From contig JAAOMT010000591.1 of assembly GCA_016748015.1 (NCBI GenBank), positions 667,050 through 731,049 on the forward strand: 64,000 nucleotides of DNA. The letters are read 5' to 3'. Positions 188 to 35,353 of the stretch are shown here, piece by piece (positions within the stretch are counted from its first letter, which is position 1; each line of letters starts with the position of its first letter). The translations under genes were made by a program, and so were the position numbers. The notes below the pieces were generated by a model. It searched no databases. It saw nothing but the letters and a program-made list of their open reading frames with translations, and had not been told where the DNA came from. The stretch comes from Geosiphon pyriformis uo1 (lineage: Eukaryota; Fungi; Glomeromycota).

Positions 188-1574
188 ATAGATCTCAGAA
201 ACTACAGCAATCTTAAAAATTATTTGGAGATTCTTACCATGTCAGAAAACTGGTCTCCAAGTGAAAAACACCACTTACAACACCAATTAAAACAATATTT
301 CATACACCAAAACAAAATCTATTATAAAAATCACAGAAAACCAAACCAGCCACTCAGATTAGTACAAGAGAATAAAAAAGAAACAATTTTATACAACATG
401 CACACAGATTCATCTTCAGCACACTTGGGAAAAGAGGGAACAATTCAAAAAACCCTTGAACATTATTTTTGGTCTTACATGCAAAAAGATATTCAATAAT
501 ATGTAGAATCTTGTGATAATTGTCAAAGAAAAGGAGGAACTCACCTCACAGAACCTCTAAATCCAATCAAAGTTGGACAATCTTTTGACAGAGTTGGAAT
601 TGATTTAGTCGGACCATTATTTATCACAACCCAAGGAAATTGTTATATTGCTGTTGCAGTGGATTATCTTACCAAATGGCCTAAAGCTAGAGCCATCCAA
701 AGAGCAGATGCAAAATCAGTAGCAAATTTCATCTATGAAGACATTATCTGTAGACATGGATGCCCAATTGAACTCTTATCTGATCAAGAAACACATTTTG
801 TAAACAACTTGATACAAAAAATTTGTGAACAATTCAATGTCAAAAGACCTCTATTATCACCTTACCATCTCCAAACAAATGGACTTGTAGAATGTTTCAA
901 CAGAACATTGTGTGAATCTCTAGCCAAAGTCTCAACAGACTTTGAGCAGGAATGGGATATCTTTATTCCATCAGTGTTACTAGCATACAGAACACTAAAA
1001 CAAGATACTATGAAACACACACCATTTGATCTTACTTATGAAAGGACAGCAACATTACCAATTAATTTCACAGTGGAAACATACCCAGTGCAACCAATCA
1101 ATAAAGAAAACTTTCAAGAGACACTCCAAAGAAGAGCCTACACTCTTCTTAGTACACTGAAAGGAAAAAGAAAAATAGCAGCAACTTATATTGAACATTC
1201 CCAAGCTCAACAAAAAGAAAGACATGACAACAAATTACCACCTATTATCAACGAATTTAAAGTTGGAAATAAAAGTTCTCTTACACAGAACTAAGGCTAA
1301 AAAACAATGGAGTGGGAAATTTGAAAACAAATGGGATGGACTATTTTATATTCATGAAATTCTAGGCAATGGATCATATAAGTTAAGGCTTGATGACAAA
1401 ATATTAGCAAAAGTTGCACATGGAGACAGATTGAAACACTATTATTCCAGAAACAATCCTGAACCATTAATTCCACAAATTGGTACACATTTCTCTTTAA
1501 TTAATCCTAAAGATATTCTCCGAAATTTAGAACCAATAATTATAATAGAACAACAACCAAACTTGAACACTTAA
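188..1574 (+). pseudogene. Stand-alone integrase ORF of element A (HHCC, DDE core, GPF module; no chromodomain)
   Basis: ORF fragments 224-499, 659-1294 and 1191-1574. Motifs H..SSAHLG...WS, CDNCQ, GIDLVGP, DYLTKW, SDQETHF, YHLQTNGLVE, KWDGLF. Start is ATA GAT, which is ATG GAT in copy D. Confidence 0.9.
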
Positions 1575-1717
1575 AGCTTACAATAATTTTCTAATAAAAA
1601 CACAAAGACAAAAATAGTAAATAATTACAAAACACCCAAACCCAAAAACAAATAAAAATCCCATATCCAAAAAATAATTTTCTTTATTCTCTTTTTTCAT
1701 AATTAGTCAATTTTATC

Positions 1718-2425
1718 ATGATTATTTCTCGAAATATTCAACAAATATCCCAAAAATTAATGTTAGTCTTGAAAACACTTCCTGACTTATCCATAACAAT
1801 TAATGGAAGTCAAATTAATTACATTCAGAAAGAAACCACAGCCCCAGTAGCAAATTATTTACAGAATTATCACCTCTATAGAAGAAAAACAAGAAGTCGC
1901 TCTGAGAATAGATTACCAAGATTTTTGAAGCAAGCACTAGAAGAAAATTTTTTAATTGCTCCTATTGACATTTCACCAAATGCTACAATACAACAAAAAC
2001 TTCTACTACTTCTTAATGAACAGAACAATGAACACATCCCTATCTATAAATACTTTCAAATTAGAAAAACACTTTATGAACGAAAACTGAAACTTGAAGT
2101 AACAAATCTCACTCCTGAAGTTATACACAAACAAATCCACAATGAATTCAAAACAGCAGCTGGACCAACAAACACTCACTACAAACTTAGAGCCACTCTT
2201 AGACTCTATGATTTGTTCAATACTTGTGAAAATGTTCTACAAAATCCAATACTGCAACCAATAAAAGTCCAATACATTGGCAAACTCACAGAACTGAAAT
2301 TTCAACAATTTTCAGACCAGATTACTTCAATTATTTTAGATTACTATCTCAATATTACAGATAGTGCTTGGACTTCGATGGAGCTCAGTTTTGAAGAGGA
2401 GATTATGTTACCAGTAGAATTTTAG
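1718..2425 (+). CDS. ORF3 of element A: 235-aa protein of unknown function in the env position, ending inside the 3' LTR
   Basis: Uninterrupted ORF. Homologous copy in D (45284-45991). No signal peptide or TM stretch visible. Confidence 0.75.
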   Translation: MIISRNIQQISQKLMLVLKTLPDLSITINGSQINYIQKETTAPVANYLQNYHLYRRKTRSRSENRLPRFLKQALEENFLIAPIDISPNATIQQKLLLLLNEQNNEHIPIYKYFQIRKTLYERKLKLEVTNLTPEVIHKQIHNEFKTAAGPTNTHYKLRATLRLYDLFNTCENVLQNPILQPIKVQYIGKLTELKFQQFSDQITSIILDYYLNITDSAWTSMELSFEEEIMLPVEF

Positions 2426-3377
2426 CTATTAATTAGCATGAAAATTACCCTTATAATTCATATAATTTATTAGTATATTAATATCATTTCAAATTATCAT
2501 TTATTATTTAATCAATTATCACATATCACGATTCAATTAAAATAATCTAATTAGTATAACAGAAAGTAGGATGATCAAATTACACAATACCCTGAACTTT
2601 ATAACATTCAAAAATTCGCCGAAATTTACAGAAATTCGCCGAAATTATGAATAGTTCACCCAAATTAATGAATAGTTCAGCGAAATAACTTGTAGTTCAT
2701 CAAAATGTATCTTTAGTTTGCCGAAATTTGAGCAAAAAGAAAAAGTGCAAGTTCATAGACTAGTACTACAACAAGTGTATAAAAGAAGAGCTTTTCTCTT
2801 CTGGAAAATGTATCTTACTTTAAATTTATCTCTTAAAACCGTTCCTATATACACAAAAAGAAATAAATATCAAATAATTTGAAAAAACCAAATTCTTTAA
2901 TTATTGTACTTGGAAAATCCCCAAAACCCAACTAACATTTCGAAATTGATTAGCTACCAATTTCAGTAAACTGTTAGTGACCCCAGGTCTGGATAGAAAA
3001 CGTTTCTCTTAACAAAATTCTATTTTTTTTACATTTCTTTTATTTTCTTTTTCTTTTCTTATTACAATCATTAGGGTAGTCTACAGACGAGATTCCTGTA
3101 GAAGAGTTGACTTTCACAGCAAAGTAACTATACATTTTAATGAGCTTCCAGATGAGCAATTCCTGGGAAAAAGTTGATGTTTACTACAATGTAACTACAT
3201 AAAGTAACTGGCAAAGAATTGGCCATTCCACTTATAAGCCCAGCAAGTTCAAATTATAAGAGATAATTTGAAGATAAATTCAGTTACTGGAGGTCCAACT
3301 ACTTCCTGGAAACATGAATTCACAGCAAACAGGTATCAACAACATTTAAAAAAAGAGACCAAAAGCCTCTGGTAACA
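2406..3377 (+). repeat. Fam1 3' LTR (element A)
   Basis: TGTTACC...GGTAACA termini. Matches the reverse complement of 53236-54249. Confidence 0.93.
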
Positions 3378-6300
3378 GCACCTATGAATTTACAGTCATG
3401 CTTTTTGGTCTTATCAATATTTTTCCCATCTTTCAATGCCTAATGGACAAAATGTTTGAATTAGTAAAAAAAAACTTTGTTTTGGTCTATTTAGATGACA
3501 TAATAGTATACTCAAAAACTTGGAATAAATATTAGAACATTTACAAAAGATTTTTGATCTCCTTAGAAATGCTGGTCTCAAAATCAATCTAATCAAATCT
3601 TTTTTTGGACAACAATCTACTCAGTTCTTTGGTTATCTTATCACAAAAAATGGAATTTTTTCTAACTCAGCTAAATTTAAAAAAGTTCAGAACATTAGAC
3701 AACCAATAAATGTTTCTAAATTATACTCTTTTCTTGGTTTGACTTCTTACAATTGCAAATTTATTAAAGATTTCTCCAAATTTATCTTTCTTTTCAATCA
3801 GCTACTCAGAAAAAATGTTAATTATTATTAGGGCACTTATCAACAAAAAGCTTTTGAAACTCTGAAAAAAAAACTTGTTACTGAACCAATCCTTAAACAA
3901 TCTGATTTGGACCAATCTTTTATTCTGCACACTAATATATCTGGTTATGGACTTGGTGCTGTCCTCTTATAAAAAAATAAAAATAATAAAAAACATGCTA
4001 TAGCATATGCCAGTAGAACTTTCACACCAGCAAAAAAAAACTATTCAGTTACTGAACAAGAATGCTTAGTAGTAGTTTAAACTACTAGTTATTGGAATCA
4101 ATATTTTTTTAGTGTGAAATTCCTAATAGTAACAGATTATTAAGCCTTGGTTTGACTGTATGATAAAAAAAAGCTAGAACACAAATGAATAATTTGCTGA
4201 ATACTTCATTTAGATAAATTCGACTATGACATTTAACATCACAAAGAAGCAAATTATCAAAACACTGACACTTTCTCTAGATTTACTATACAGTAATAGT
4301 ACAATTTTTCAACCAAATCAACTTAATTATTAGTAACTCTCTTATAAACAAACATAATAATAAACTTAGACAACTACTCTGTATTAATAAAATTCTTGGG
4401 TAAAAAACAATATCCATTAGAATACACTTAACAGCAAAGAGAACATTTGCACAAACAATCAAATTTCTATTTGATTTGCCAGAACCAGTTATATAAAAAA
4501 AACAGAAAAGATCTTGACTGCTTTTAAAGAGTTATTAGATTTGAAAAAAAAGAAATTGTAATCTACTATATGTATACTGATCTATTAGCTTAACACTTTA
4601 AAAAAACATAAACAATACAAAAAATCTTAGCTTGCTATTATTGGCTTATCTTAAAAAAAGACATTGTTGAGTACATCAAAACCTGTAACATTTGTCAAAG
4701 AAAAGGCAAATCCAATCAAAAAAAAGATATTTATTCAATCTTTGTTGGTTAACTATTTGACAGAATTAGCATAGATGTTGTTAGATTTCTAATAATAACT
4801 TCTGATAATAATAGATATATTATTATAGCTACTGATTATCTTACAAAGTAAGTAGAAACAAGAGCCATTTTAGACAAAACAACAGTCTCAATAGCCAATT
4901 TCATTTATGAAAATATTATTTGTTGTCATGACTGTTCCAAAAAACTTTTATCTAACAAAAAAAAGCTTTTCTCAGTACACTGGTTAAAAAACTTTGTAGA
5001 AAAATGGAAATATTGTTACAATTGAAACTTATACTTCTTATTAATTATCACATGTATTAGCCACTGATGTTATATAAATTAGCCACTCTATTTTTAGTAA
5101 GTGATTATTGACCTGATCAATGACCTAACCATTAACCTGATCATTAATCTGATTATTGACCTGATCATTAATCTAGTCGTTGACCTGATCATTGACCACT
5201 TTGATAGCTATATAAGTGATAAATTTTTTAATTGTAGAAAAGTATAAAGAAATCAAAGAAATAAAGAAATAAAATAACAACTTCATCTCAATCCTTTTCT
5301 TATTGCTAATTTCTCTTTTCCTACTTTCAAGTATCTGAATATCTTAAAGATAAAAGATTACTTGTTGGTTATTCCTTACCCTTTTCCTAAAACATGTAAT
5401 TGCAATATTTGGAGATTATTAAATAAAACATGACTGAAGAGCACATCTGATACTTGATATTAAATTCTAAGAGCACTGACATGAGGCATAGAATTATACC
5501 AATTGTGATCATTTGTTGACAGTACGAACTATTCCTCTATCTTCAGATTTCCCGGTTATCTTTAAAAAGTATAGCAACTGAAATATTTTATGAGACTGAT
5601 CTTGCACATTGAATTTTTACTCATTCAATTCACTCTTTGAAGTTGAATTCACCTTTGATTATTTCTATCACCCTACAATTCTGTTCTTTCTTGCTATCCA
5701 TTGTTACTCATAAAAAAAAAAAAAAACAGATATAGAAAATAGCAGACCAATAAGAGAATAGTATTTAGCATGTGAACACATCACTCAGCAATGTAGAGCA
5801 ATGTCAGAAATCATGGCATATTGCTCAGCAATGTGGAGTGATGTTAGAAAATTAGAGCACATTGCTCAAGAAATTATAGCACATTACTTGGAAATGTGAG
5901 TGATCTTGTAGAACATCTATTATGTATATATAGTAATAGCATTAGAAATAGAAAAAAAACAGAATTCTTTAGTTAGAAATCTTCTATTCACAAATATTGA
6001 ATAAATAAATCATCTACTATTCAAATCTACTCTCCACTATCAACACTTTATGTTGATAATAATTGATACTTAACTATGCTGGAACAATAGCTCTTGATCA
6101 TGGCTATTGATGAGATACTAATTTGTGTATTACCTTGGCTTATTTCTTTATTTTCTTTTATTTTCTTTCTTTTTTTGATTTTTCTTGTTGAATACTAACT
6201 AATTAAGAATTAAAGCACTGAGTAATTGACATTACGGATAGTCTGGTAAAAGTCCTAGAAATAAGGGTAAAATTATATATATATTAACGAATAGCTTATC

Positions 6301-6559
6301 AAAAGAGCACAAATGCCAGAATAAATCTGGCCACCAAGCTGAGAAAGAAATTGAGAACAACTCATAAGGAAACTACGAATAACATCAACAAAGAATCTCT
6401 GTTCATTATACAAAGGATTCAACTCTAAAAACTTTCAGATACAACCAACATACCAGTATTACCAGCATTGCCAAGATATTGAGCACCAAGTTATGGATTT
6501 GTTATTTGATTTGAGATCCCAAATAATCATCTGTAATATTTGGTGCTCCCTGTGAAGTA

Positions 6560-9500
6560 TAATCCTACAGAGAACCAGCACCATTAACAATCATCCAAAA
6601 GTGGCAGAATCAGAAATCATAGGAACAAACCATTTAGGATTTGCCAAATCCTTATTTCAACAATACAGTTAACAAATAGGATTGAACAATAATCATTTCT
6701 CAGCTGAATCAGCCTTCAACTTTTATGTCAACAATAAAATTACAGACTGCTTAGGAGGAACAGTTAACATTGAATCTGCAAGAGAAAATTTCTATACAGA
6801 ATTATTTCAACATATTAGCTTACCAAGAAACTACAGTTTTGCACCAATTATTAGGGAAATCAATCAAACTATTAAAAAGTATACACAACAACAATTCCCC
6901 ATCACCTACGTAGATAAAAGCAAAGAAAGATTGCAAACTCCAGCAGTAACACCAAAACAAATCCAACCACTCAATTGGAAGAAAACCTGAGTTGAATCAC
7001 CCATCTATCTATTATACCATTATATGTCTGGAAGTGTCATCAACATCTCATCAACAGACATGTTCACATCAAACACAACATCAATCTTCGAATGCTTCCC
7101 ATTTCAAAGTAAACAATGGAAAGCAGAGTTATTAAGACCATATGGCAATTACTTTGAAGAATTTAAATTGTAATTGCTGACACCATCAGGATTCCAATTA
7201 TTACCACCTCAATCAGATTTCAGAAATACAAGTCCTTGGGAAATAACAGAATTAGAAAAAAAGGAAAAAAAAGAATCTAAAAATCAAGAATTTACTTACC
7301 AGAACCCAATTACAGAAAACTCAGAATTTAGAACCCCGAATCTTCAAACCCAGCAAAATTCAAATTTAGAAAACCCAGAAATCAAAACTCCAAATATTCA
7401 ACCACCATCAAATCAGAACAATCAGAATTCCAATCTAATTAATCAACCGGATCTATCTCCCATTATCGTTATTAACCCACCACCAGTTGAACCAATTGGC
7501 CAGCCACTACAACAATCACACCAGCAGATTCAACAGCTACTAGTACCACTTCAACAATTACCACAACACAACTTAGATCCAATGGTATACGCACTAATAG
7601 CCAAACTCGAAAAATTCACCAGCAAAGAGGACAATGCCCAAGTATGGCTAAATAATGTGGAGAAAGCCATTGCAGTTAATGGCTGGAATGATGCCAGAGC
7701 CATGCAAGCCATCCCATATTTTCTCCAGAATACTGCCAATTTATGGTATCAAAGTCTGATCAACAAATCCCAAGATTTTAATGCATTCAAAATAAAGTTC
7801 TTAAGATACTTTAGCAACAATAACAGCATTAACAAGCTAGCAAATATCTTCACTACCATCAAACAAGGAGAAAATGAAGCAGTCACTACTTACTTAGAAT
7901 GCTTCCACAGAAATCTGCACCAGATCCAAGCCATTGACCCCAATTATTTCACAGTAGCCCAGATCCTAAATCAGTTTATTTGCGGATTACACAGTAGCAT
8001 CCTACAACACGTATGTCCAATGCATCCCATCAATCTGCAAGCAGCCATCACAAATGCCAGAGATTTTGAAGCCACTGAACTCGAAGCTAACCATGTCCAA
8101 GCCGTTAATCTAGTAATGAATAAATTATCTAAATTGGATTCCAAATTGAAACAATTTAGTAATTCCATCAATCAGAAATTAGAAGGATACTTAGTTGACA
8201 ATCATGCAATTTATCAACCACCACAATGACATAATAATTCTGGAAACATGAATCATTTCCAGAATCAGTCATGTCTATCATTGTCGACCAATCAACAGTG
8301 GCAACAAAAAACATGTGTTTGTCACTATTGTGGTAAACAAAAATACCTACAAATTGATTGCTGCCATCACTTAAATAACCAACAATCAGGAAATCAATAT
8401 CAAAATCCCAATTGCTTGTTTCACATTCTGAATAACACACCGAATTCAGAGCCATACCATCAGAATTACTTATTTATGATACAGCAGCCACTTTATCAAC
8501 CACCAGTATATTAAATGCCAATTTATCAACTGATGACACCAGCAATTTATCAGCCACAACCACAACCCATTTATCAGCTGCAGCCCCAGGTAATGTATTA
8601 GCCCCAACAAATTCAAACACCGCCACAGAACTTACTGCAAAATGGAACCCAAAGGTCGAGATTGACCCAACAAAGCTGGAAATTGTTGATGGTAGTCCAT
8701 CAACCAATCCCCAGTTCCACGGCACAACCATTAGGCTCTCAACAATAGAATTTGGGCACCGAGTATGCCCAAAACCCAAATTCTCAGAACTATTTAAGTC
8801 TTCTTGTCACTCCAGAAGACACCCAATCCAATAACCCAGAAACTAACCAACACCCAACACTTATTAGCAACATTTTGCCAGCTACTATCACCAAGAACAA
8901 ATTACTAGATGCCATCTTTCTATTTGAACCCAAAAAACCATCAATCATGTCATTATTTAGTGGAGCTGCTCTGGAAGAAAATCCTATTACTGTCATGTAC
9001 ACTGATACAAAAGTTAATGGCCATACCATCAAACTAATCCTAAATAGTGGATCAGCTGGCAGTATTATCACATAACAACTCATGGACCAATTAGGTCACC
9101 GAGTTGATCACACTGCTAGCATGTGTATAATCACAGCTGACAGAGTGACTAAAACTCCAATTGGTGAAATCAACAACTTTTCTTTCGAAGTCAATGGCAT
9201 CAGTATTCTCATCAAAGTCTTAGTAATAGAAGCAACCCAATATCAAGCATTGGTAGACAACAATTGGTTATCCAAAACTAATGCCATACTCAATTAGACC
9301 ACTTAAGAATTACAACTCAGTCAAAACAGTTGACACACACATGTACCAGCCACATGTGGCCACTTTAAAACCACCAACTCAACAACTCCACTCATTGAAT
9401 TGGAAGAAAAAAAGGAGAAACCTATCTGGAAAGCTTATTAAGTGTTCTGGACCGACAAAGATCACAACAAACTACTGCCTATACTCTCCTGGGATGACAA

Positions 9501-12500
9501 TAGTAAAGGAAAACAGAAGGAGACTGAGCTTATTTGGAATACCAATTAAACCTGAGAAATTGACAATGACCAAGATGAACTAACTTGGAAGTGAACAAAC
9601 AATAATAGTAAGGAGAAAGAAAAAGAGAAGGAAAAGGAAACAACACCCATTAACAGTACTTATAGCCCATATGCTTACACTTTACTACTGTCATCTGGTT
9701 ATCACCAACCAAAACTGGTATGTGTCAATTGTGACAAGAAATTGTCATTAATGGGCGCATGTTGTGGTGATAACAAAAAATACTCTACTGTCACCAGATT
9801 TTACTGCCATCCATGCGTCATAAAGTGCTTTGGATGATTGAAATGACAAGGAAAGTGGGACAACCAACTATGTTTCACATGTGGAATGATTTTGCCTGAT
9901 GAAGGAATGTGGAATAACATTCTTGGGCAAGAAAAAATGTGCAATGAGACATGTCAGTATACCATCTTGATAAATGACTGGGTATGCAAGAGAACACCAA
10001 TCAATGACACATGAAAAAGAGCATTATGATAATTGGAAAGATATCTCCAGAATAAACATAAACTTTGGAGAATGGCATATGTGAAAGCAGAAGGTGCAAC
10101 AACCAGCGAATTACTGAAAATAAAAAACAATCTTCTATTTCTTTCTGAACCCAAATACATCCAAACTTTTAACATCTTTGGCAACATCAAAAATGACCTA
10201 GAAGAATTCCATAAACACTACTAGCAATTAATGCCCACAATAGAAGAACAGAAACAATGCTTGGAAGAAATCAACACTCAATTATGTGACCACTGTTTGA
10301 TTCCATGTGACTTCTAGTATTGTAATAAGTATAACCTCATTTACAATCTACCACCACGCATGATCTACACAATTACAGAAAAAGAAGAACCAATCAATCA
10401 CTGTGCATCAGAATCGAAATCAACTTTCAATTCTGATTCAAACTTCAACAACAATGACAACAAAAACAACGGTTCCAGCTCTGCTCCAAATAACAACAAA
10501 AATTATGGCAATTCAAATTCTGATTCAAACCCCAAAACCTTTATTGCACTTCCTAATCTCTCCAAGGAACAGGAACTCAAATGGTATAGTGATAATAATG
10601 AAGGTATCATGCCAGAATGCACACATAATACTAATGCAGGATTTGATCTGAGATATCCAGGAAAAGAAGCTATCAAATTGGAACCAAATTTGCACACATA
10701 TATTGATCTCAAAATAGCTCTGGAAATTCCAGCAACAAATATGGTCCAATTAGCATCTAGAAGTAGTTTAGCAAAAAAAAGAATCAACATTAGAGGAGAA
10801 ATAATTGATATGGGATATGTAGAAAATATTATCACCATGCTACAAAATGACTCAGAAAAGACCTATATTATAGAACCAAATGAAAAGATAGCACAGGCAA
10901 TATTCTTATCTCTAGTGAAGATAGTTCAATTAGTTTTAGTGGGAAAGAAGAAAGAATTAGATATAACAGCAAGAGGGATACAGGGATTTAAATCAATGGG
11001 TAGAATAGATATACCAATTAATATGGCAGAAAAAAAAATTGTTGACAAAGGAGAAATTATCTCAACCCATCAAACAATTTCCATTCTATCATATGACCAA
11101 TATGGGTTAACCATAAAAAGAAAAGTAAAAAATCAAGCTCAGTTGTTTGAAGCAGAAGTCACCATTTGCGAATCAGGGGAGATTGGATTCACTAATCTCT
11201 ACATATTAGTCAAAAGCCCCAAAAATATCAAAATTCCCATCTACAATACAACCAGAAGTGTCATCGAAATACCAAAGGGAACCATCATTGGATATTTAAC
11301 CACCAAAGTAAAGGATCAACCACCAAACCACATTCCAGATTTTCTACAGCTTTGCAGATATGTGGATATTACATCACAAACCATTTATGGAAAAAGTAAA
11401 TGTTATCTGTTTCAACCAGAACAATTAGAACAAATGAACATGGGGAATCTAGATTCACTTCAACAGATGCAATTCAAGATGTTACTTAACAATTTCAATG
11501 ACATTTTGCCAGTAAAAATGAATTTGGCTGAACCAACATCATCCAGTATTAGATCAAGACTGGAGATACAATGCCAATTAAACAAAGAGCATACAGAGTA
11601 CCACCAGCTAGCCATGAGATCATTTGTCAAGAAATTAACCAAATGCTTGACAATGGGCTAATTCAGCCATCAATGAGTCCATGGTCATCACCAGTGGTAC
11701 TGGTTCATAAAAAAAATGGAAAAATCCGTTTTTGTGTAAACCACCAAAAACTGAATGAAGTAACAAAAGGTAATAGCTATCCAACTTCAAAAATCCAAGA
11801 ACTATTCAATGCTTTTGGAGGAAATAAATAGTTCTCAACACTAGATTTAAATAGTGGTTACTGACAAGTAGCTATGAATCCAGCTGACAAAGAAAAAACA
11901 GTGTTCATCATAAGAAAGAGAAATTTTGAGTTTGAAGTCATGCCATTTGGCTTGATGAACGCTCCAGCAATATTCTAATGGCTTATGAAAATTGTTTATA
12001 TTAGATTACTATGAAAATCAGTAGTTGTATACTTGGATAACACCAATGTGTTCTCAAAAACATTTTATGATCATTTGCATTATCTCCAACAAGTGTTTGA
12101 AAGATTGAAAAGAGCAGAATTGAAACTAAATACAACCAAATGTTTCTTTAAAAAAATTAAACTCAAGTTTTTGGGACATGTAGTGAGCAAAGATGGAATC
12201 AAAATGGATCCAGACAAGATTGAAGTAGTTAAAAACTTCTGGTACCAACCAACTTGACAGAATTAAGAGCATTTTTAGGTTTTGCAGACTATTATTGCCA
12301 TTTTATTAAAGACTTTTCAAAACTGGCTCAGCCACTTCACTATCTACAGACCAAGAATGTGAAGTATGAATGGACCAAAGCTCAACAAGAAGCATTTGAC
12401 ACATTAAGAAGAAAGTTTATCCAAGCTCTAGTATTGATGTATCCAGATCACAGCAAACTATTCATAATCACCACTGATGCATCAGATCAAACATTAGGAG

Positions 12501-12832
12501 CAGTACTATCACAGAAAAAATCAGATGGAAGAGAACATTCAGTAGCTAACACTAGTAGAAGCTTAAGTTCAGCTGAGAAGAACTATGGAACTCCAGCACT
12601 AAAACACTTAGCTATCTATTGGGCTGTCATCAAATAGAAGAAATACTTGAGTCAAAAGTTTGAAGTGTATACTGATCACAAAAAATTGACTTCAATCCAA
12701 AAACAAAAATTTGCAGACAATTACCATGCCAGATAGAAAATAGAACTTTCACCATTTAATTATACAGTACATTATAAAAAGGGAAAAGACAATGGAAATG
12801 CTGATGAATTATCATGAATAAGACAAATCTAA
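6560..12832 (+). pseudogene. gag-pol of element E (retrotransposon gag, Zn knuckle, aspartic protease, Cys-rich domain, dUTPase, RT, RNase H); start approximate
   Basis: Motifs WLNNVEKAI..NGW, CHYCGKQ, LILNSGSAG (DSG), AGFDL/RSS/IAQ/RGIQGF, SPWSSPVVLV, YLDN, TDASD. The gag and PR fragments at 7174, 8248, 8752 and 9082 share one frame. Confidence 0.88.
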
Positions 12833-12863
12833 AAACATTTCAACCCAAAAAATATAATAAAAG

Positions 12864-14241
12864 ATAGACACACAAAAATACAAACAACTCCAGCATTATA
12901 TAAATACTCAATTGTTCAAGAAAAAATTATCTCAAAAAGAACAAAACAACATAAAACAACAATCAAAATATTTTATTAATCATTAAAATATACTCTACCA
13001 GAAGAACAGAAGAAATCCAGATCAACCAATCAGAGTAGTCACAGAATCAGAAAAAGAGACAATATTATTCAACATGCACTCAAATCCAACAGCAGGACAT
13101 TTTCATAAAGAAGCGACCATAAAAAGAACCAGAAAAAGATATTATTGGCCATCAATGTATCCAGACATCATCCAATATGTTCAAAATTGTGATGCTTGTT
13201 AAAAAAAAAGAGGAACAAGACCAAGTGAACCATTAAAACCAATCAAAGTAGAACAACCATTTGATTACATTGGAATTGACTTAGTCAGACCATTAACAAT
13301 CACCAGTAAAGACAACAGATATATTGCAGTAGCCATGGATTATCTCACTAAATGGCCAAAAGCAAAAGCCATTCAAAGAGCAGATGCAGAATCTGTTGCT
13401 GAATTTGTCTATCAAGAGTTAATATGTTAACATGGATGTCCAAAAAAACTACTATTAGATCAAAAAACTCATTTTGTGAATAGAACATTAATAGAATTAA
13501 GTCAGAGATTTGGGATAAAAAGATTATTATCGTCATCATATTATTTACAAACAAATGAACTAGTCAAAAGATTTAACAGAACACTGTGTGAAACAATTGC
13601 CAAAATCAGTCAAAAAAACCAAGATGAATGGAATTTGTTTATACCATCAGTATTATTTGCTTATCAGACAATAAGACAAGATACTACACAAACAACACCA
13701 TTTGAATTGGTATATGATAGGACAGCAACATTATCAGTTGAGAGAAAGGTCAGCATATATCCAATGGAACCAATAACAGAAGCTAATTTCCAAGAAACAT
13801 TGTTAAGAAGAACATATAACTTAATGGAAACACTAGAAAACAAATGACAAAAAAGCAGCTGATAACATTTAAAAGTCTTGAGAAAAGTAAAAAAAACGGC
13901 ACAATAACCAATTACCAGATAAACCAGTTGAATTCAAGATTGGAGACAAAGTACTTCTACATTGTACCAAAGTGGAAAAACAATGGAGTAGAAAATTTGA
14001 TCCCAAATGGGACGGACCATTTCACATAGAAGAAATTCTTGGAAATGGAGCTTATAAACTAATATAAGACAACAAAATCTTAGCCAAAGCAGCACATGAT
14101 GATTAACTGAAACCATATTACCAAATAGCATTATCATCTACCAATAACATTCCACAATTAGGAGTACAACGAATACTAGTTCAACCAAATGAGATTCTAT
14201 AAGATCTGGAACCAATCATAATTATTGGGCCAAACACATAA
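12864..14241 (+). pseudogene. Stand-alone integrase ORF of element E
   Basis: Starts ATA GAC ACA (degenerate MDT) 31 nt after the pol stop. Motifs AGHF, YYWP, GIDLV, DYLTKW, KWDGPF. Ends EPIIIIGPNT*. Confidence 0.85.
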
Positions 14242-14299
14242 AATCAAACAATAAAAGAGTATATAAAGACAGTATATGTGACAAATTCAACCAAAAAAA

Positions 14300-14960
14300 A
14301 TGGAAATACCAAATCATATTCATGCCATAGCTCAACAATTATTCCAGGCCTTAAGTCAACAACCATTAGATATGGAAATTATTGTTAACAACCAAACAAT
14401 TTGCTATCAAAACACCAAAAGAAAAACAAAAAATACATCATATTAGTGGTTACAAAAAAATGATAAAAACTGGTTAGACAATATAATAGAAAAAATAAGA
14501 AACACTTTTGGGAAAATACCTATTATGGCACTAACAGAAGAACTTACAAAAAAGAATTGGAAGCAATAGACAGAACAACTTCCAATATCATACTGTTATT
14601 ATCAGTTAAGTCGAAAGTTAAATATTCAGAAGTTGTATATTAACAAATCCAAGAGAGTATTTAACCAAAACATAATACAGCAAATTGAAGAATTTATTGG
14701 GAAAAAGACGAACTTGACACTATACATGAGAATAATTTATTGACTGCACAACATATTTCAGAACTATCCAGAAATACTGTTATACTCTAACATGGAAACC
14801 ATAACCATTAACCAATGGAGAAGAATAAACAATACACAAGTAGAAGACGTGAAAAACAAAGTCGAACAAACAATACTTGAAAAAAAAGTATTAGAATTAA
14901 TTCAAAACAAAGATTTCAACAGAGCTCAATATTAAAAAGAGGAGATAATATTACTCATAA
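14300..14960 (+). pseudogene. ORF3 of element E (MEIPNHIHAIAQQLFQAL...), degenerate; end approximate
   Basis: Read by eye from ATG 14300 with a few in-frame stops. Same position and N-terminal pattern as Fam1 ORF3. Confidence 0.65.
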
Positions 14961-15926
14961 AAAAAAAAGAAAACAGATATAAAAAATAGCAGACCAATAA
15001 GAGAATAGTATTTAGCACATAAGCATATTGCTCAGCAATGTGGAGCAATATCAAAAATCATGACACATTGCTTAGCAATGTGAAGCAATATCAGAAAACA
15101 CAGCATATTGCTCAGCAATGTGGAGCGATATTAGAAAATTAGAGCACATCACTCAGCAATATGAGCATTGCTCAAAAAATCATAGCATATTGTTCAGAAA
15201 TGTGAGTGATTTCATAGAACATCAATTATGTATATATAGTGATAGCATTAGAAATAGAAAAAAAACAAAATTCTTTAGTTAGAAATCTTCTATTCACAAA
15301 TATTGAATAAATAAATCATATACTATCCAAATCCACTCTCCACTATCAACACTTTATGTTGATAGTAATTGATACTTAACTATGCTAGAACAATAGCTCT
15401 TGATCATGGCTATTGACGAAATACTAACTTGTGCATTGCCTTGGCTCATTTCTTTATTTTTTTTTATTTTCTTTCTTTCTTTGATTTTTCTTGTTGAATA
15501 CTAACTTGATTAAGAATTAAAGTGCTGAGTAATTGACGTCATGGATAGCCTAGTAAAAAACCCAGAAATAAGGATAAAATTATATATATATTAACAGATA
15601 GCTTACCAGAAAAACATGAATGCCAGAATAAATCCAGCCACCAAGCTGAGAAAGAAATTGGGAACAACTCATAAGGAAACTATAAATAACATTAACAAAG
15701 AATCTCTGTCCATTATACAAAGAACTCAACTCTAAAAACCTTCAGATACAACCAACATATCAGTATCACCAGCATTGCCAAGATATTGAGTGCCAAGTTA
15801 CAGATTTGTTATTTGATTTGAGACCCCAAATAATCATCTGTAACACTATTAGCTTGTTACTCCAACCCATAACATAAAAGTAGTGCTTTTTGTGAGGTTG
15901 TTAAAATCCACTTTGTTTTTTATTGT

Positions 15927-17474: not shown

Positions 17475-20155
17475 ACACACCTCCAAAGGATGAAAGTGCA
17501 AGCTAACCAGAAAAAAACCCCTTTTATGCTTTTAACCTAACTGATAATAATCATGATATGGATGAACTAGCAATCAACACCTCTAAATCAACCAAAAAGA
17601 AGAAAAAAGCCAAGATTGATTTTGTCTTAAACTCAAACAAAGCATCCAAATTATCTGCTAATAACAATGAGTCACCAAAGGTTAAGGTTTTTAAAAATCC
17701 TCCAAAGTTAGAACCCCCAGAAATTGTACAAAAATTTGGATCCTATTCCATTGTTAAAGATCTCATGGAAACTCCAGCACACATTATATTTGGCCAGTTA
17801 ATGACTCACCCACAGTTTAAAAAAGATCTTTGCAAATCATTAATACCAAAGAAAAAGACACCAAAGACAAACAAACACCTTTACCAAGCTGAACTTGCTG
17901 ATGACAGCAATGTCATCCCTCTGATTTGTAAAGCCCAAGTGGCTGGTTACTTTATTGATCTGATCCTAAACAGTGGATCATTTGTTAGCATAATTGCCAA
18001 ACATTTTCTTGAAGCAATTGGCAGAAAAATTGATGAGCCTTCTATAAGACCAATAACTAATGTACATGGTAACAAGAAGAAAGGCCTGGGCATAGCCAAA
18101 GCTATTCCTGTTCGCATCAATGGTATCAGCATTGAAACAGATATGGAAGTATCTGAAGCAAAAGAGTACACCATTATTGTTGGTAATGAATGGCTTCAGA
18201 AAGCCAAAGCACTACTTAACTATAAACTTTGTGAGCTAACCATCAGATGTGGTAAGAAACCCATTGTGGTTAAATGCCGATATTGGACAACTCCTCCAGT
18301 ACCCAAGCAGAACCAAAAAGTAGAACAATCAGATGAATCAGATAATAATAAGAGCGATGATAAAAAAGATCAAGAAGAACCAGAAGAAACTGCTAAACTC
18401 GCTTATACCATTTTTACCAGCAATGACAAGCCACTAGACAATGTTAAAGCTAACAAAAAAGGAATCATGATAAATGGCAAGCTGATTTGTTGGCCCTACT
18501 ATGATATCCTCAGAAGAATCTTTGACAGAAAACCTGGCAAGAAAGCAAAATATAGTTATTGGTAATATGGTCTTTGTGCACAGTGCTAGTATAATAAATC
18601 TTTGTATTCACCAAGTGATGAATGCAAATCCTGTCTAATCTATTACAAAGATTGGGAACCAATTAGCTTGATACCTCGAGAAGAACTTAAAGAAGTACAA
18701 AAGTCCTTTGAGAATAAACCACTTGAAATCCAATTACTAGTTGTAGAACAAAAAGAACCTTCCCCTGAAGAAAAAAAAGTGGACATTGAAAATCTGTTGG
18801 CTAGGAATAGCCCAGTTATCTCAAAAGAAGATAATGCCCCTGGATGAACTCATGTGATACAATACACCATCACCACCAAAAAAACTCACCCCATTTATTT
18901 GAAGCCTTATCAATTCAATTGACACAATGATGAGTTTATCAAGAAAGAGATAAACCAGATGAAAGATCTTGGATTCATACAAGAAACCAAGAGTAAATAG
19001 GCTTTTTCAGTTGTAGTGGTATTCAAGAAAAGTGGAACCTTATGCTTCTGTATTGACTACTGCCAATTAAATACCATCACTATAAGAAACATGTACCCAC
19101 TCCCCAAAATTGATGCAATGCTAGATAAATTCAATGGTACTGCTTTCTTCTCAACTATTGATTTAACTGCTGAATTTTGACAAGTAGAGATGGATCCAGA
19201 AAGCAGAAAGAAAACTGTCTTTATCACCAAGTATAGCACCTATGAATTTACAGTCATGCCTTTTGGTCTTACCAATACTCCTCCTACCTTTTAATGTCTA
19301 ATAAATAAAGTGTTTGAATCAGTAAAAGAAAACTTTGTTCTGGTTTACTTGGATGACATAATGATATATTCAAAAATCTGGGATGAACATCTTGAACATT
19401 TACAGAAGGTTTTTGACCTGCTCAAAAATGCTGGCCTTAAGATCAACCCAATCAAATCTTTTTTTGCATGCCAATCTACCCAATTTCTTGGTCATTTTAT
19501 TACAAAAGATGGAATTTTTCCTGATCTAGCTAAAGTTGAAAAAGTTCAAAACATTAGACAACCAATGAATGTTCCTGAACTATGCTCTTTTCTTGGTTTG
19601 GCCTCTTACTATCGCAAATTTATTAAGAATTTCTCCAAAATTGCTTTTCCTTTCAATTAGCTACTCAAAAAAAATGTCAATTATCACTGGGACACTTATC
19701 AACAAAAAGCTTTTGAATTTTTGAAGGAAAAACTTGTTACTGAACCAATTCTCAAACAACCTGATCTGGACCAACCTTTTATCTTTCACACTGATGCATT
19801 TGGCTATAGACTTGGTGTTGTCCTTTTACAAAAAGATGAAAATAGCAGAAAACATGTCATAGTATATGCCAGTAGATCCTTCACACCAGCAGAAAAGAAC
19901 TATTCAGTTACTAAACAGGAATGTTTAGCAGTAGTTTGGACAACTAGTTACAGGAATCAATATCTTTTTGGTGTAAAATTCCTAGTAGTAACAGATTATT
20001 AAGCCTTGGTTTGGCTGCACAATAAAAAAAAGCTGGAACACAAACAAATAATTTGTTGGATACTCCACTTGGATGAATTTGACTATGATATTCAACACCA
20101 CAAAGGAGCAAATCATCAAAACACCAACACTCTATTTAGACTTACCATCCAGTGA
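17462..20155 (+). pseudogene. pol (PR-RT-RNase H) of element C, -1 frame relative to gag
   Basis: LILNSGS, VYLDD, FHTDA. TGA at 20153-20155 after ...RLTIQ. Confidence 0.87.
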
Positions 20156-20219
20156 CAGTACAACCTTTCAAACCAAACCAACTTAATTATTAGTAACTTT
20201 TTTATAAACAAACATGATA

Positions 20220-21533
20220 ATAGACTTGGACAACTACTTTGCCTTAATAGAATTTTTGGGTAAAGGACAATATCCACCTGAATACACTCAACAGCAAAGA
20301 AAACATTTGTGCAAACAATCAAATTTTTATTAGATTCACCAGAACCAATTATACAAAAAAAACAGAAAAAATCCTAACCACCCCCAAAGAGTCATCAGAT
20401 TTGAAAAAAGAGAAATTGTAATATACAACATGTACACTAACCTATTAGCTAGCCACTTTGGAAAAACAAAGACAATTTAGAAAACTTTAGCTCACTATTA
20501 TTGGCCTACCTTGGGAAAAGACATTGCTGAATACATCAAAATCTGTGACATCTGCCAAAGAAAAGGCAAACCCAATTGCAAAAAAAATATTCATCCAATC
20601 TCTGTTGGTCAACCATTTGACAAAATTGGTATAGATGTTATTGGACTTTTAACAATTACTCCTGATGGCAACAGATATATTATCACAGCTACCAACTATC
20701 TTATAAAGTGGGTAGAAGCAAGAGCCACCCCAGACCAAATAGCAGTTTCAATAGCCAATTTCATTTATGAAAATATCATCTGCCATCATGGCTGCCCCAA
20801 AAAACTTTTATCTGATAGAGAAAGAGCTTTTTTCAGTACACTGGTTAAAAAACTTTGTAGAAAAATGAGAATATGTTATAAACTTTTCTTCCCTTATCAC
20901 TCCCAAACAAATGGCCTAGTGGAATGTTTTAATAGAACATTATGTGAAACCCTAGCCAAAACCAATGAAGAAACAAACTTATGAGACAAAGTACTGCTTT
21001 TAGCTTTGTTTGCTTATAGAACTGTGAATTATAACATAACAAGTTATGAATCTTTTTATCTGCTCTATAGATGCATGACAATACTACTAATAGAAACTAA
21101 TATTAAAACAATACTCTTTGAAGAGATCACAATAGGGAATTACAAAGACATTTTGCAAAGAAGACTTGGTACTATTCTTGACTCCTTGGTAGAAGCACGA
21201 ATAATTGCTTTTGAAAAGATAAAACAGTTCCAAAAAAAGCTTAAGAAAAAAAAAACCTATAAAACACTTTCTTTAAGTGTTGTTTACTTGGTATTGGAAT
21301 ATTGTTCAGACAGAGACAATATCTATGATAATAAATTTTCTAGCTGATTAAAAGGACCCTTTATAGTCAACAAAGTTTTGAACAATAGTTTTTATATTCT
21401 TCAAAATCAATCTGAAACAATCTTCAATGATCATTTTGTTCATAGTACACAACTCAAGAAATACCATAAATGATCTGATTGGCTGCCTGTTGTGGTAATA
21501 CTGATTCAAATAATCAGCAAAAATCAAGTATAA
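20220..21533 (+). pseudogene. Stand-alone integrase ORF of element C
   Basis: ATA GAC TTG (degenerate MDL). CDICQ, GIDVIG, YHSQTNGLVE, KGPF. Confidence 0.85.
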
Positions 21534-21574
21534 ATAAATGCACCATTCCCAAAACAAAGATATCTTCAATTAAC

Positions 21575-22232
21575 ATGAACAATTATTTTCTGAATCAAAA
21601 CATTCAAAATGCCTTCTATACTCTTTATGAATATTGGATCAAAAACTATCCAAATGCTACTTTGACCATTGGAAAACAAACCACCATAACTGATAACAGT
21701 GGAACACATACTGTTATTAGACCAAAGAAAACCATTACCAGAAGAAAAAAAATTGGTAGTAAAATATATAAATATCTGTTGGAAAGTATAACAGCAGCTA
21801 TACTTCCACTTTCCAACACAATTGGAAAAACACTTCAAAAAATCTTATCCATAGACAAAAAACTTGTTATATGAAAGACAATTAGAACTCTATGGTCGTT
21901 TTGGTGAAATCATAGAGGATATGAAACTCATGAAGAAAACAACTTTAGAGATACAGGCAGAAATTTTGGGCATTATACAGTTAGATGTTTTAAAAGTTTT
22001 AACTATTGCTAGAAGAGCCAAAACTCTAATACAAAGATTTGGTTTTTTGGATACAAAACTTATTTCACTTCAAGTATTATATATCTTATTAACAAAAGAC
22101 TTCAACAAACTAGTTAGCTTTGAGTTAGATAAAATCTTTCCAATAGATTACACCATAAATAGCTTAATTTTGCCAGAGCTGAATCTCTTTAGAGAGGATG
22201 ATGTTATGGTTGAAACTTATACTTCTTATTAA
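21575..22232 (+). pseudogene. ORF3 of element C (one frameshift)
   Basis: ORFs 21479-21874 and 21864-22232 match ORF3 of element F. Confidence 0.75.
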
Positions 22233-25070
22233 TTATTACATGTATTAGCCACTGATGTCATATAAATTAGCCACTCTATTTTTAGTAAGTGATCATTGAC
22301 CACTTTTGATAATTATATAAGCAATGAATCTTTTAACTATAGAAAAGTATGAAAAAATTAAAGAAATAAAGAAATAAAATAACAACTTCATTTCAATCTT
22401 TCTCTTATTGCTAATTTTTTTTTCCCTACTTTCAAGTATCTGAACATCTTAAAGATAAAAGATTACTTGTTGGTTATTCTTTACTCTTTTCTTAAAACGT
22501 GTAATTGCAATATTTGGAGATCATTGAATAAAATGTGACTGAAGAGCATATCTGATACTTGATATTGAATTTTAAGAGCACTGACATAAGGCATAGAATT
22601 ATACCAAGTGTGATCATTTGTTGACAGTACAGACTATCCTTCTACCTTTAAATTCCCCAGTTATCTTTGAAAAGTATAGCAACTGAAATATTTTATAAGA
22701 CTGATTTTGCACATTGAATTCTTACTCATTTAATTTGTTCTTTGAAGTTGAATGTCCCTTTGATTATTTCCATCACCCTACAATTCTGTTCTTCCTTGTT
22801 ATCTATTAGCTTGTTATTCCAATCTGTAATAATATGTTATAAACTTTCTTCTTTTTACTATCCTTAAACAAATAGCTTAGTAGAATATTTCAATAGAATA
22901 CTATGTGAAATCTTAGCCAAAACCAGTAAAAAAACAAACTTATAGGACAAAATACTGTTTTCAGCTTTGTTTGCTTATAAACTGTAAATCATAACATAAC
23001 AAGTTATAAACTTTTTTATCTGCTCTATGAATACATGACAACATTACTAATAGAAACTAATATTAAATGAATACCCTTTGAAGAAATTACAATAGAAAAT
23101 TATAAAAACATTTTGCAAAGAAAACTTGGTACTATTTTTGACTCATTGGTAGAAGCACAAATAATTGTTTTAAAAAGATAAAACAGTTTTAAAAAAAGCT
23201 TAAGAAAAAAAAAACCTATAAAACATTTTTCTTAAGTGTTAGTAACTTAGTATTAGAATACCATTCAGACAAAGACAATGTCTATGATAATAAAATCTCT
23301 AGCTGATGGAAAAAACTCTTTTTAGTCAACAAAGTTTTGAACAATGGTTCTTATATTTTACAAGATCAATATAGAACAATCTTTAATAATTGTCTTGTTT
23401 ATGGTACATGATTCAAAAAATATTACAAATGACCTAATTGGTTATCTGTTGTAATAATACTGATCCAAATAATTAGCAAAAATCAGGTATAAATAAATGC
23501 ATCATTTCCAAAACAGAAGTATTTTTAATTAACATGAACAATTATTTTCTGAATCAAAACATTCAAAATGTTTTCTATACTCTTTATGAGTATTGAATCA
23601 AAAATTATCTAAATGCTACTCTGACTATTAGAAAACAAATCATTATAACTAATAACAATAAAATATATACTATTATTAGACCAAAGAAAACTACTATCAG
23701 AAAAGAAAAAATTGGTAGCAAAATGAATAAATATTTGCTGAAAAGTATAACAGTGGCAATACTTTTACCTTCCATTACAATTGAAAAAACAATTAAAAAA
23801 ATTTTATCTATAAACAAAACTTGTCATATGGAAGGCAATTAGAACTCTATGATTATCTTGGTAAAATTATAGAGAACATAAAGCTTATGAAGAAAACAAC
23901 TTTAAAGATATAGATAAAAATTTTGGGCATTATATAATTAAATGTCTTAAAAGTTTTAACTATTGCTAAAAGAGCCAAAACTCTTATACAAAAATTTAGT
24001 CTCTTGAATACAAAACTTATTTCATCTCAAATATTATATATCCTATTCACAAAAAACTTTAACAAACTAGTTAGTTTTAAGTTAAACAAAACCTTTCAAA
24101 TAGATTATCCTATAAATAGCTTGATTTCACCAGAGTTTAATTTCTTTGGAAAAAATAATGTTATAATTGAAACTTATACTTTTTATTAGTTATCACATGT
24201 ATTAGCCACTAATATCATATAATTAGCCATTTTATTTTTAGATAGTAATTATTGATTTGATCAATAATCTGACTATTGACTTGATTATTGACCTGATTAT
24301 TGACTATTTTCAATAGCTATATAAGTGATAAGTCTCTTAGCTATAGAAAAATATAATCAAAGTAATGAAATAAAATCCACTATTATTTTATTTTTTTTTA
24401 TATTATTTATTCTCTTTTTCTTATCTTTAAGTATCTAAATATCTTAAAATAAAAAATTACTTGTTGGCATTTACATACTTTATCTTTTTTTTTTCTTAAT
24501 TTGTATTGTTAGAATTAGTCTGAGAAGTAATTGCTTGCTCTTGTAATTTATTGAATAAAAAAATAATTAAAAAGCATAATAATACCTGTTATTAATTTTA
24601 AGAATTGCCAAGTTGAAGTATAAAATAATAGCAGTGATGTTATCTTGTTAACAATTATGGACTATTTCTCTATCTTTAAATTTCCAGAAAAAATTTACAA
24701 CTGTAATTTTTATAAGACTAATTATGCACATTGAATTTTTATTTATTTAATTCACTTTCTTATTGTAATTTTCTTTTTAATTATTTTCATTATTCTACAA
24801 TTCTGTTCTCTTTTGCTATCCATTAGCTTGTTACTTCAATCTGTAATAATATTATTTAAATAAATTAAAATAAGGTTTTTATTAACTAATTTAAATACTT
24901 TGTTTATTAATTATTAAAAGATAAAAAAAGCATTAATTAATCCAAAAAACATAATTGTAAATTTATAAGTATTATACTATTATAGTTGAAACCCATAGTT
25001 TTTATTAGTTATTACATGTATTAGCCACTGATGTCATATAATTAGCCACCCTATTTTTAGATAGTAATCA

Positions 25071-25190
25071 TTGACCTTATCAATGACCTGACCATTAACC
25101 TAATTATTGACCTGATCATTGACCTGATCAATGATCTGATTGTTGACCTGATCATTGACCTAATCATTGACTTGATTGTTGACCTAGTCA
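25071..25190 (+). repeat. Ten tandem 12-mers (consensus TTGACCTGATCA) in U3 of the Fam3 LTR, just upstream of a TATATAA box
   Basis: Counted directly. The same array, with different copy number, is present in most Fam3 LTRs. Confidence 0.9.
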
Positions 25191-25722
25191 TTAACCACTT
25201 TAGATAGATATATAAGTGATGATTTCTTTAGTTGTAGAAAGACATGATCAAAGTAACGAAATAAAACAATATTAATTACTTCCTCTTATATCGCTTATTT
25301 CTCCTTTCCTTATCTTCAAGTATCTACTTGTTGGCATTCACATATCTTATCTTTTCCTCTTCTTGATTTGTATTTATTAGAATTAGCCTGAGAAGCAATT
25401 GGCTTGCTCTTGTAATTCATTGAATAAAGAAATGATTGAAAAGCACAATGATACCTGTTATTGATTCTAAGAATCGCTGAGTTGAGGCATAGAATAATAG
25501 CAGCAGTGTTATTTTGTTGACAATCACGGACTATTCCTCTACCTTCAGATTTAAGAAAAGATTAGTGACTGTGATTTTTATGAAACTGATCATGCACATT
25601 GAATTCTTATTCATTCAATTCACTCCCTTATTGTAATTCCCTCTTTGTTTATTTCCATCACCATACAATACTGTTCTCTCTTGCTATCCGTTAGCTTGTT
25701 ACTCCAACTCGTAACATAAAAG

Positions 25723-25739
25723 TGGTGCTCCCTGTGAGG
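25723..25739 (+). promoter_or_regulatory. Primer-binding site TGGTGCTCCCTGTGAGG
   Basis: Begins with TGG (complement of tRNA CCA), 6 nt after the LTR end. Near-identical in Fam2 (6541). Confidence 0.85.
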
Positions 25740-25768
25740 TTGTCAAAATTCACTTATTTCCTCATTGT

Positions 25769-27322: not shown

Positions 27323-27358
27323 GCACACCTCCAAAGGGTAAGAATGCAAGCCAACCAG
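27310..27358 (+). promoter_or_regulatory. Putative -1 ribosomal frameshift signal: T TTA AAC plus downstream stem-loop
   Basis: Heptamer is in X XXY YYZ phase one codon before the gag stop, and pol is in the -1 frame. Conserved in C, G and H. Confidence 0.8.
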
Positions 27359-29981: not shown

Positions 29982-30047
29982 TAGTAAAACCCTTTCAAAC
30001 CAAACCAACTTAATTATTTGTAACTTACCCCACAAACAAACACAATA

Positions 30048-31361: not shown

Positions 31362-31402
31362 ATAAATGCACTATTCCCAAAACAGAGGTATCTTCAATCG
31401 AC

Positions 31403-35053: not shown

Positions 35054-35353
35054 CTACGGAAAGGTGAAGAGTCAAAAGAGAGGGGTGAAGGTGATGGATG
35101 ATGGGAAGAAAAGATCGAAACACAATGGAAAAATGGGAGAAAGTAAATTTTTGTCGTCCAAGGCAGCTGATAGAAGGGCGATCACCTGTAATCTATCCAA
35201 TCAGGTTTTCAGTTCTAAATTTCCTGATTCTTTTCAAGCTGAGCCTGCCAATGAAATCTATCCACGACTGCTTACTTATTTGCTTCTGGTCTCAACTAGC
35301 TTTTGATTAGAACTTGGCTTCTGTTCTACCAATTAAACTCTAAAATATTTGCC
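35054..35353. promoter_or_regulatory. Probable bidirectional promoter between DLT1-like and SPC3
   Basis: Divergent start codons 300 bp apart. Confidence 0.6.

Follow-up and report, generated by a model that had tools for sequence, protein, structure and literature searches.

An apparently new non-envelope third gene in Ty3/Gypsy retrotransposons of Geosiphon pyriformis and its candidate role as a nuclear factor

In the 64-kb stretch of Geosiphon pyriformis DNA analysed here (the window), decayed Ty3/Gypsy elements of three families, which we call Fam1, Fam2 and Fam3, lie nested in one another. Its G+C content is 31.6%. The Pfam domains found are Retrotrans_gag, RVP_2 / aspartyl protease, dUTPase (in two families), Integrase_H2C2, rve and SH3_Tf2-1; RT lies upstream of integrase in all three families, and LTR pairs are present. 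The carriers were assigned to Ty3/Gypsy because of the gag, protease and integrase domain matches and because of the position of RT upstream of integrase. The integrases of Fam1 and Fam2 are 60% identical and those of Fam1 and Fam3 46-49%, while the RT of Fam3 shares 43-45% identity with those of the other two families. Each family's LTR has its own tandem array, with units of 10/21, 40 and 12 nt in Fam1, Fam2 and Fam3, respectively. According to PMC11952901, LTR elements make up 41.2% of the Geosiphon genome.

Other features of the carriers were also observed. A dUTPase domain is located upstream of RT in Fam1 and Fam2 pol (10318-11661 on the forward strand and 48921-50462 on the reverse strand; Pfam E 1e-16 and 9e-21), and no dUTPase match was obtained in the two Fam3 pol frames scanned. 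This domain is described as rare in retrotransposons and, besides rotifers, as reported only in basidiomycetes (PMC5408684). A related PBS-like motif follows the 5' LTR in all three families (after 6536, 25716 and, on the reverse strand, 53237), which suggests that they may use one primer tRNA. A short motif in the DNA, located 6-10 nt upstream of the PPT (2379-2411, 14922-14954 and 32004-32034), also recurs in all three families, where their ORF3 frames (see below) differ; it probably acts in cis during reverse transcription or integration. Between element clusters, a non-transposon gene fragment (34920-35755, forward strand) matches the signal peptidase subunit SPC22 (E 5e-17). A 2-kb Fam3 3' piece composed of the integrase end, ORF3 and LTR (22831-24865, forward strand) stands in tandem directly after an element ending at 22842. 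ORF3 is absent from the Fam3 piece at 3378-5013.

Table 1. Third open reading frame (ORF3) copies and neighbouring features, with their positions in the window.
Feature	Position	Strand	Basis
Fam1 element A, integrase core and SH3-like C-terminus, broken, two frames	500-1574	+	rve E 5.6e-10, SH3_Tf2-1 E 0.0026
Fam1 spacer between pol and ORF3, 143 nt, A/C-rich, then pyrimidine tract and AG	1575-1717	+	sequence
Fam1 ORF3 (element A), intact, 235 aa; tail encoded by PPT and LTR	1718-2425	+	intact frame
PPT of element A, inside ORF3	2393-2402	+	sequence
3' LTR of element A, 972 nt	2406-3377	+	85% to 5' LTR 54249-53236, which precedes PBS-like motif
10/21-nt tandem arrays in Fam1 3' LTR	2612-2686	+	repeat scan
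TATA-box consensus 40 nt before Fam2 ORF3 ATG	14260-14267	+	motif scan
Fam2 ORF3 (element E, 5704-15843), 211 codons, 3 internal stops	14300-14935	+	sequence
40-nt tandem array, 4.4 copies, Fam2 3' LTR	15027-15204	+	repeat scan
Fam3 ORF3 copy, frameshifted	21575-22232	+	sequence
Fam3 ORF3 copy, frameshifted, with stops	23534-24189	+	sequence
TATA-box consensus 46 nt before Fam3 ORF3 ATG, overlapping pol stop codon 31359-31361	31357-31364	+	motif scan
Fam3 ORF3 (element F, 24978-32683), 218 codons, one internal stop 31805-31807	31403-32059	+	sequence
12-nt tandem array, Fam3 3' LTR (longer copies 5102-5197, 25067-25196)	32116-32161	+	repeat scan
Second Fam1 ORF3 copy, 85% identical protein, 2 internal stops	45284-45991	-	sequence
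Fam3 ORF3 copy, frameshifted, start codon lost	54270-54925	-	sequence
Fam3 ORF3 3' fragment	61299-61457	-	sequence
Fam3 ORF3 fragment cut by window end	63836-64000	-	sequence

After integrase, all three families carry a further open reading frame in sense orientation (ORF3; Table 1), which is 211-239 codons long. The window contains seven near-full copies and two fragments, and among the seven only the copy of Fam1 element A (1718-2425) is unbroken. An earlier reading of this DNA from sequence alone (the sequence-only reading) had described a sense frame of about 220-235 codons after integrase in each family, which is right as to orientation and place and too narrow as to length. It had also taken the frame to cross the PPT in each family. 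This is the case in Fam1 and Fam3, where ORF3 stops inside the 3' LTR at the depths then given, 20 nt in element A (LTR starting at 2406) and 31 nt in element F (LTR starting at 32029). In Fam2, by contrast, the stop codon (14933-14935) overlaps the first two purines of the PPT and the frame ends at its 5' edge; the Fam2 homologues that keep the C-terminus (P0227-P0229) end at the same place, P0227 being an intact homologue with 73% identity. The N-terminal patterns, basic patch and helical C-terminal part described for the proteins were all recovered, with the correction that the Fam1 N-terminus quoted belongs to the copy at 45991 and not to the frame at 1718. ORF3 is not a read-through tail of pol, because in none of the three families do the two share a reading frame, and this explanation was rejected.

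The sequences upstream of ORF3 differ between families. In element A, whose pol stop is at 1572-1574, the pyrimidine tract and AG lie 14 nt before the ATG, with the same layout upstream of the copy at 45991, and the AG is a possible splice acceptor; no TATAWAWR was found upstream of this ORF3. The TATA-like words noticed earlier in Fam2 and Fam3 are borne out: TATAWAWR occurs at -40 in element E and at -46 in F, C and D (four of the five copies scanned), on a background of 1.6% per 25 nt and, in Fam3, overlapping the pol stop codon.

LTR retrotransposons are known to carry additional ORFs in sense orientation downstream of pol and before the 3' LTR, a class named aORF-3S (PMC7264820). ORF3 resembles this class, as described there, in position, orientation, presence in most family copies and conservation (PMC7264820). 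It is a sense frame distinct from pol, placed between pol and the 3' LTR, and judging from the homologue counts and the Fam3 omega given below most copies have it and it is as conserved as the core genes, the Fam1 pair giving no signal. In contrast to the plant cases of that review, which are env-like and transmembrane, ORF3 has no transmembrane segment, measures 211-239 aa and is fungal; it also differs from the aORF-3S reviewed there (PMC7264820) in that two families have it extending across the PPT into the LTR and in that several lineages share it.

Database searches returned 200 homologues for Fam1, 104 for Fam3 and 7 for Fam2. All 231 that were listed (120 of the 200 for Fam1, 104 for Fam3 and 7 for Fam2) are 'hypothetical proteins' of Geosiphon pyriformis. 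By length and end filters, 67 of the 120 listed Fam1 proteins and 22 of the 104 Fam3 proteins are full length; these counts are not rates, because gene callers favour open copies. Many G. pyriformis gene models join pieces of ORF3 to gag, pol or other repeats in chimeras (P0212, P0231-P0233, P0250, P0255, P0266, P0289), and the annotation therefore contains many transposon-derived 'genes'.

Most differences between copies are C>T/G>A changes and neutral (omega 0.89 in ORF3 and 0.97 in integrase), and are decay after insertion. Plain NG86 ratios were set aside because transition bias inflates synonymous counts, and the other change classes were considered separately. Among four copies of Fam3 ORF3, 24 of the 35 T>C/A>G changes are synonymous, with 13.8 expected (omega 0.30), as are 12 of the 20 transversions, with 3.5 expected (omega 0.14), the p-values for selection being uncorrected and an LTR control reaching p 0.026 in one change class in the same frame. 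Integrase gives omega 0.59 and 0.10 for the same two classes. As for the other five frames, four lack a synonymous excess and the antisense frame sharing third positions echoes the signal. This shows that Fam3 ORF3 is under purifying selection, with omega 0.14-0.30 outside deamination decay. The dN/dS check, proposed in the sequence-only reading for subfamilies and made here between copies, thus yields values well below 1 in Fam3; the Fam1 pair in the window carries no selection signal (15 of 52 changes synonymous, 13.5 expected), and Fam2 is present in the window as a single copy. Two Fam1 subfamilies differ at 48 of 140 positions in the N-terminal part and at 10 of 80 in the core (p 4e-4). 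Altogether, the data support ORF3 as a real, conserved accessory gene.

The CpG observed/expected ratio in the window is 0.22. In the Fam3 copies at 19235-22249, 29062-32076 and 54253-57262, the C>T rate by context was 0.12 in CA, 0.13 in CT, 0.16 in CC and 0.28 in CG. A CpA-specific RIP signature was rejected, given the little context preference of C>T, and the decay pattern is neither classic CpA RIP nor CpG-only deamination. CpG depletion and neutral C>T/G>A decay are as expected of silenced elements. In Rhizophagus, a relative of Geosiphon, TEs are reported to be methylated and a source of small RNAs (10.1101/2021.03.30.436303).

No transmembrane segment was found in any of seven ORF3 proteins, whose highest 19-residue hydropathy is 0.44-1.44, in agreement with the earlier statement that ORF3 is not env. 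The N-terminus of Fam1 has a hydropathy of about 1.0-1.1, and its helix is conserved as part of the folded module. That ORF3 could be an env-like protein or a non-functional open frame is suggested by its env position and by the six broken copies among the seven in the window, but we give this idea almost no weight: besides the missing transmembrane segment, the synonymous excess lies in the ORF3 frame, the protein is conserved across lineages, and pol is broken likewise by neutral C>T/G>A decay.

The sequence-only reading had presented ORF3 as homologous in all three families. This holds for Fam1 and Fam2, which align collinearly from the first residue over 154 columns (hhalign E 9.4e-5; profile score 36.1, compared with a shuffle maximum of 15.9) and are bridged by P0256, P0258 and P0263; by profile comparison they are one protein family. 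Searching 1.84 billion representatives with a joint Fam1 and Fam2 profile gave 76 hits, with sources established for 10 of them. They include three further G. pyriformis lineages (examples P0255, P0261 and P0270) and three metagenomic proteins, P0258 (E 5e-19), P0263 (E 1e-15) and P0302 (E 9e-4), and six of the gene models among them, judged by eye, join integrase pieces to ORF3 pieces. Two hits were dropped, P0296 for low-complexity repeats, being taken as false, and P0212 as a chimeric Fam1/Fam3 gene model. Metagenome scans found no locus for P0258, P0263 or P0302. P0258 and P0263 end in a PPT/LTR-type tail like that of Fam1, which suggests the same position in an element. By these matches, the ORF3 family spans at least five Geosiphon lineages and three metagenomic proteins. 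Identity between lineages is 12-37% for ORF3, compared with 46-60% for integrase.

For Fam3, homology is only suggested. An independent acquisition of its ORF, with a look-alike layout reached by convergence and with Fam1, Fam2 and their kin as one gene, would be compatible with any function. Local profile tests between Fam3 and the rest were not significant (hhalign E 0.2-0.7; 0.23-0.66), the deep HMM scores Fam3 no higher than reversed sequences, and no whole Fam3 protein is among the 76 profile hits; the Fam3 pol is also the most distant by RT and has no dUTPase match in the two frames scanned. However, in a global alignment summed over five lineages, seven related Fam3 copies gave z of 5.2, 5.2, 4.9, 4.4, 2.4, 4.3 and 5.0, that is 4.3-5.2 in six of the seven, whereas none of 44 control pieces exceeded 2.2 and reversed copies reached at most 2.1. 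Fam3 also aligns with P0263 over 176 collinear columns (hhalign E 0.46), and its ORF has the same position and size as the others. We thus consider a separate origin rather unlikely and Fam3 ORF3 probably homologous to that of Fam1 and Fam2. The tails of Fam1 and Fam3 are alike, but this is no sign of protein homology, because the likeness comes from the DNA of the PPT/LTR junction, which has a motif read in a different frame by Fam2; a shared C-terminal tail as a protein motif was accordingly rejected.

Across nine representatives, the conserved columns are hydrophobic, together with K/R56, G116, N152 and R162. None of them is a conserved D, E or H, and ORF3 is therefore unlikely to be an enzyme. 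The basic linker has 5-8 K/R and 0-3 D/E in each of seven representatives; the exact residues of its patch vary, the lysine content is raised by AAA-rich DNA, and one Fam1 protein has a pI of 5.8.

Bdelloid rotifer LTR retrotransposons are described as carrying non-envelope ORF3s, including a DEDDy exonuclease and a GDSL esterase (PMC5408684). The likeness lies in the non-env third gene after pol and in dUTPase, found in several of the rotifer lineages described as in Fam1 and Fam2. The bdelloid proteins described are enzymes or have transmembrane or coiled-coil segments (PMC5408684), whereas the Geosiphon ORF3 reaches no Pfam cut-off and lacks conserved acidic or histidine residues. DEDDy, GDSL and 2OG-dioxygenase Pfam families were absent among the matches listed (in one scan, 25 of 45 families).

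Pfam gave no family at its cut-off in the ORF3 part, and the match to an already described TE domain, which had been named as grounds for abandoning the idea of a new accessory protein, was not found at that level. PHROGs returned nothing below E 0.03 for nine proteins, the PDB by sequence nothing below E 0.2, and plasmids and phages, searched by tblastn with P0046, nothing at E 10. A Pfam candidate that was set aside is DUF1016_N (PF17761): P0046 scores 12.9 bits with a gathering score of 32.8, 8 of 42 members reach E up to 1 (best 0.0028), and hhalign with about 75 bacterial and archaeal N-termini gives E 0.05-0.42, at shuffle level. In the Atlas, P0258 has as its second match a cluster of 98 proteins, mostly of Mucoromycota (score 0.90), possibly a wider fungal family. 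A literature search, with supplements and the Geosiphon genome paper outside its scope, found no paper on this ORF. The third-ORF arrangement is already known, while the protein family has no catalogue match and seems to be undescribed.

Further information about ORF3 was obtained from its predicted structure. A first fold from a shallow Fam1 alignment had a pLDDT of 45.7 and no structural match. The AlphaFold2 model of Fam1 ORF3 from 37 aligned sequences reached a mean pLDDT of 69.5, with 75-94 over residues 81-200. It predicts a helix at 5-18, a beta-hairpin at 24-37 (low confidence), a disordered basic linker (placed at 39-65 or at about 49-66) and a helical core at about 80-210. Foldseek found nothing at E 0.001 in the PDB or viral models. 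In VIA-align, which covered 48,161 chains and whose trust level is Z 8, or 13 for helical bundles, the top match was the CHCT domain of Chd1 (PDB 2N39; Z 5.8, rmsd 3.8), below trust level and tied with the RNA-binding helical domain of PNPase (Z 5.7) and designed bundles. The match places model residues 88-172 on the five-helix fold of CHCT, with 80 of 108 residues aligned and 9% identity; unlike CHCT, ORF3 would have an extra N-terminal module and C-terminal helices, and the two have no sequence-profile match. A ParB DNA-binding domain also scored below trust level (Z 4.5). Neither CHCT nor ParB was matched by sequence in the PDB or Pfam at E 10. CHCT is reported to bind dsDNA, nucleosomes and Rtf1 (PMC12390759). 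The evidence leans weakly toward a nucleic-acid- or chromatin-binding role, and we think that ORF3 would most probably work in the nucleus on the element that encodes it.

We tentatively propose, as a possible though doubtful account, that ORF3 is expressed on its own, acts in the nucleus on its family's LTR DNA or chromatin, to which it would bind, and so sustains transcription of the element despite host silencing. It would be made from its own short RNA, perhaps through the internal TATA promoter in Fam2 and Fam3 and by splicing or another route in Fam1, and could enter the nucleus by means of the basic linker. The predicted helical core would then bind its family's LTR DNA or chromatin, with the family-specific tandem arrays as the putative target, and the bound protein may allow transcription in the face of silencing. 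Consistent with this are the top fold match to a dsDNA- and nucleosome-binding domain and the ParB match below it, the basic linker within a helical, non-enzymatic build, the array proper to each family's LTR, and the signs of silencing, namely CpG depletion, neutral decay and the TE methylation and small RNAs of Rhizophagus. Fast change of ORF3 with a kept layout would also suit a factor tied to a family-specific target. On the other hand, the fold matches are below trust level and shared with an RNA-binding domain and designed bundles, no CHCT or ParB match was obtained by sequence at E 10, and the basic patch varies, down to the Fam1 protein of low pI. Moreover, the Fam1 pair shows no selection signal, Fam1 has no TATA, the Fam3 TATA overlaps the pol stop, and Fam3 may not be homologous. 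LTR tandem arrays are, besides, common in elements that encode no binder for them.

The tie with the PNPase domain could also point to RNA. ORF3 may be an RNA-binding factor for export, stability or packaging of full-length RNA, like Rev or like CERV of the C. elegans element Cer1, as would befit a small, basic, helical protein with no enzyme residues and a possible splice acceptor before the Fam1 ATG. CERV offers a precedent and is likened to ORF3 by description, as a Gypsy-encoded non-structural accessory protein; it is described as the product of a spliced RNA and as exporting genomic RNA (PMC10309623). The first Atlas match for P0258, a closterovirus coat protein (PF01785; 0.91), goes in the same direction. 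However, this match is weak (recognition 2119, below 2300; shared features 138, below 170) and has no second support, P0258 having no Pfam match at E 10, and no filamentous RNA-virus coat protein was found among the fold matches listed. We regard an RNA-binding function as unlikely.

If the core resembles CHCT, chromatin could instead be met at integration. ORF3 would be a cofactor that binds integrase and tethers it to chromatin in place of an absent chromodomain, yielding the nested clusters. At the integrase C-terminus of Fam1 element A no chromodomain was matched in Pfam, the elements are nested in one another, and CHCT is reported to bind nucleosomes and Rtf1 (PMC12390759). Yet ORF3 is out of frame with integrase and so not fused to it, it changes far faster than integrase, and selection against insertions near genes would produce nesting as well, which makes this role improbable.

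Fast divergence and small size, together with the small-RNA control of TEs reported in a related fungus (10.1101/2021.03.30.436303), might rather indicate a general suppressor of RNA silencing or of another host defence, whose target would be a host protein and not the element sequence. But no known suppressor was matched in Pfam or the PDB, and selection on the conserved core is purifying, with no visible sign of positive selection; we think such a suppressor no likelier than the integration cofactor.

For the proposed LTR-bound nuclear protein, a working analogue may be found in VANC. VANC proteins are anti-silencing proteins of Arabidopsis VANDAL DNA transposons; they are family-specific and bind tandem motifs of their own element. 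They differ from ORF3 in element class and kingdom, and Pfam scans gave no sequence match between them. It is tempting to go further and to imagine ORF3 as an old chromatin-factor family present in all three families, with relatives in other fungi, which would read its own LTR arrays or dock on nucleosomes or the Pol II elongation complex via a CHCT-like bundle and thereby lift silencing family by family. We consider this wider picture speculative and improbable.

In summary, extra ORFs after pol are a known and mostly unexplained feature of LTR retrotransposons, and ORF3 provides a non-env third gene that is directly testable, because intact natural copies are numerous, its core is predicted with confidence, and the LTR arrays specific to each family offer candidate targets. 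Over 300 proteins annotated as 'hypothetical' in Geosiphon are products of transposon genes, with consequences for counts of genes and for the analysis of gene families. If it were indeed a chromatin factor, ORF3 would be the fungal LTR-element counterpart of VANC, and it would help to account for the spread of LTR elements to about 41% of the Geosiphon genome.
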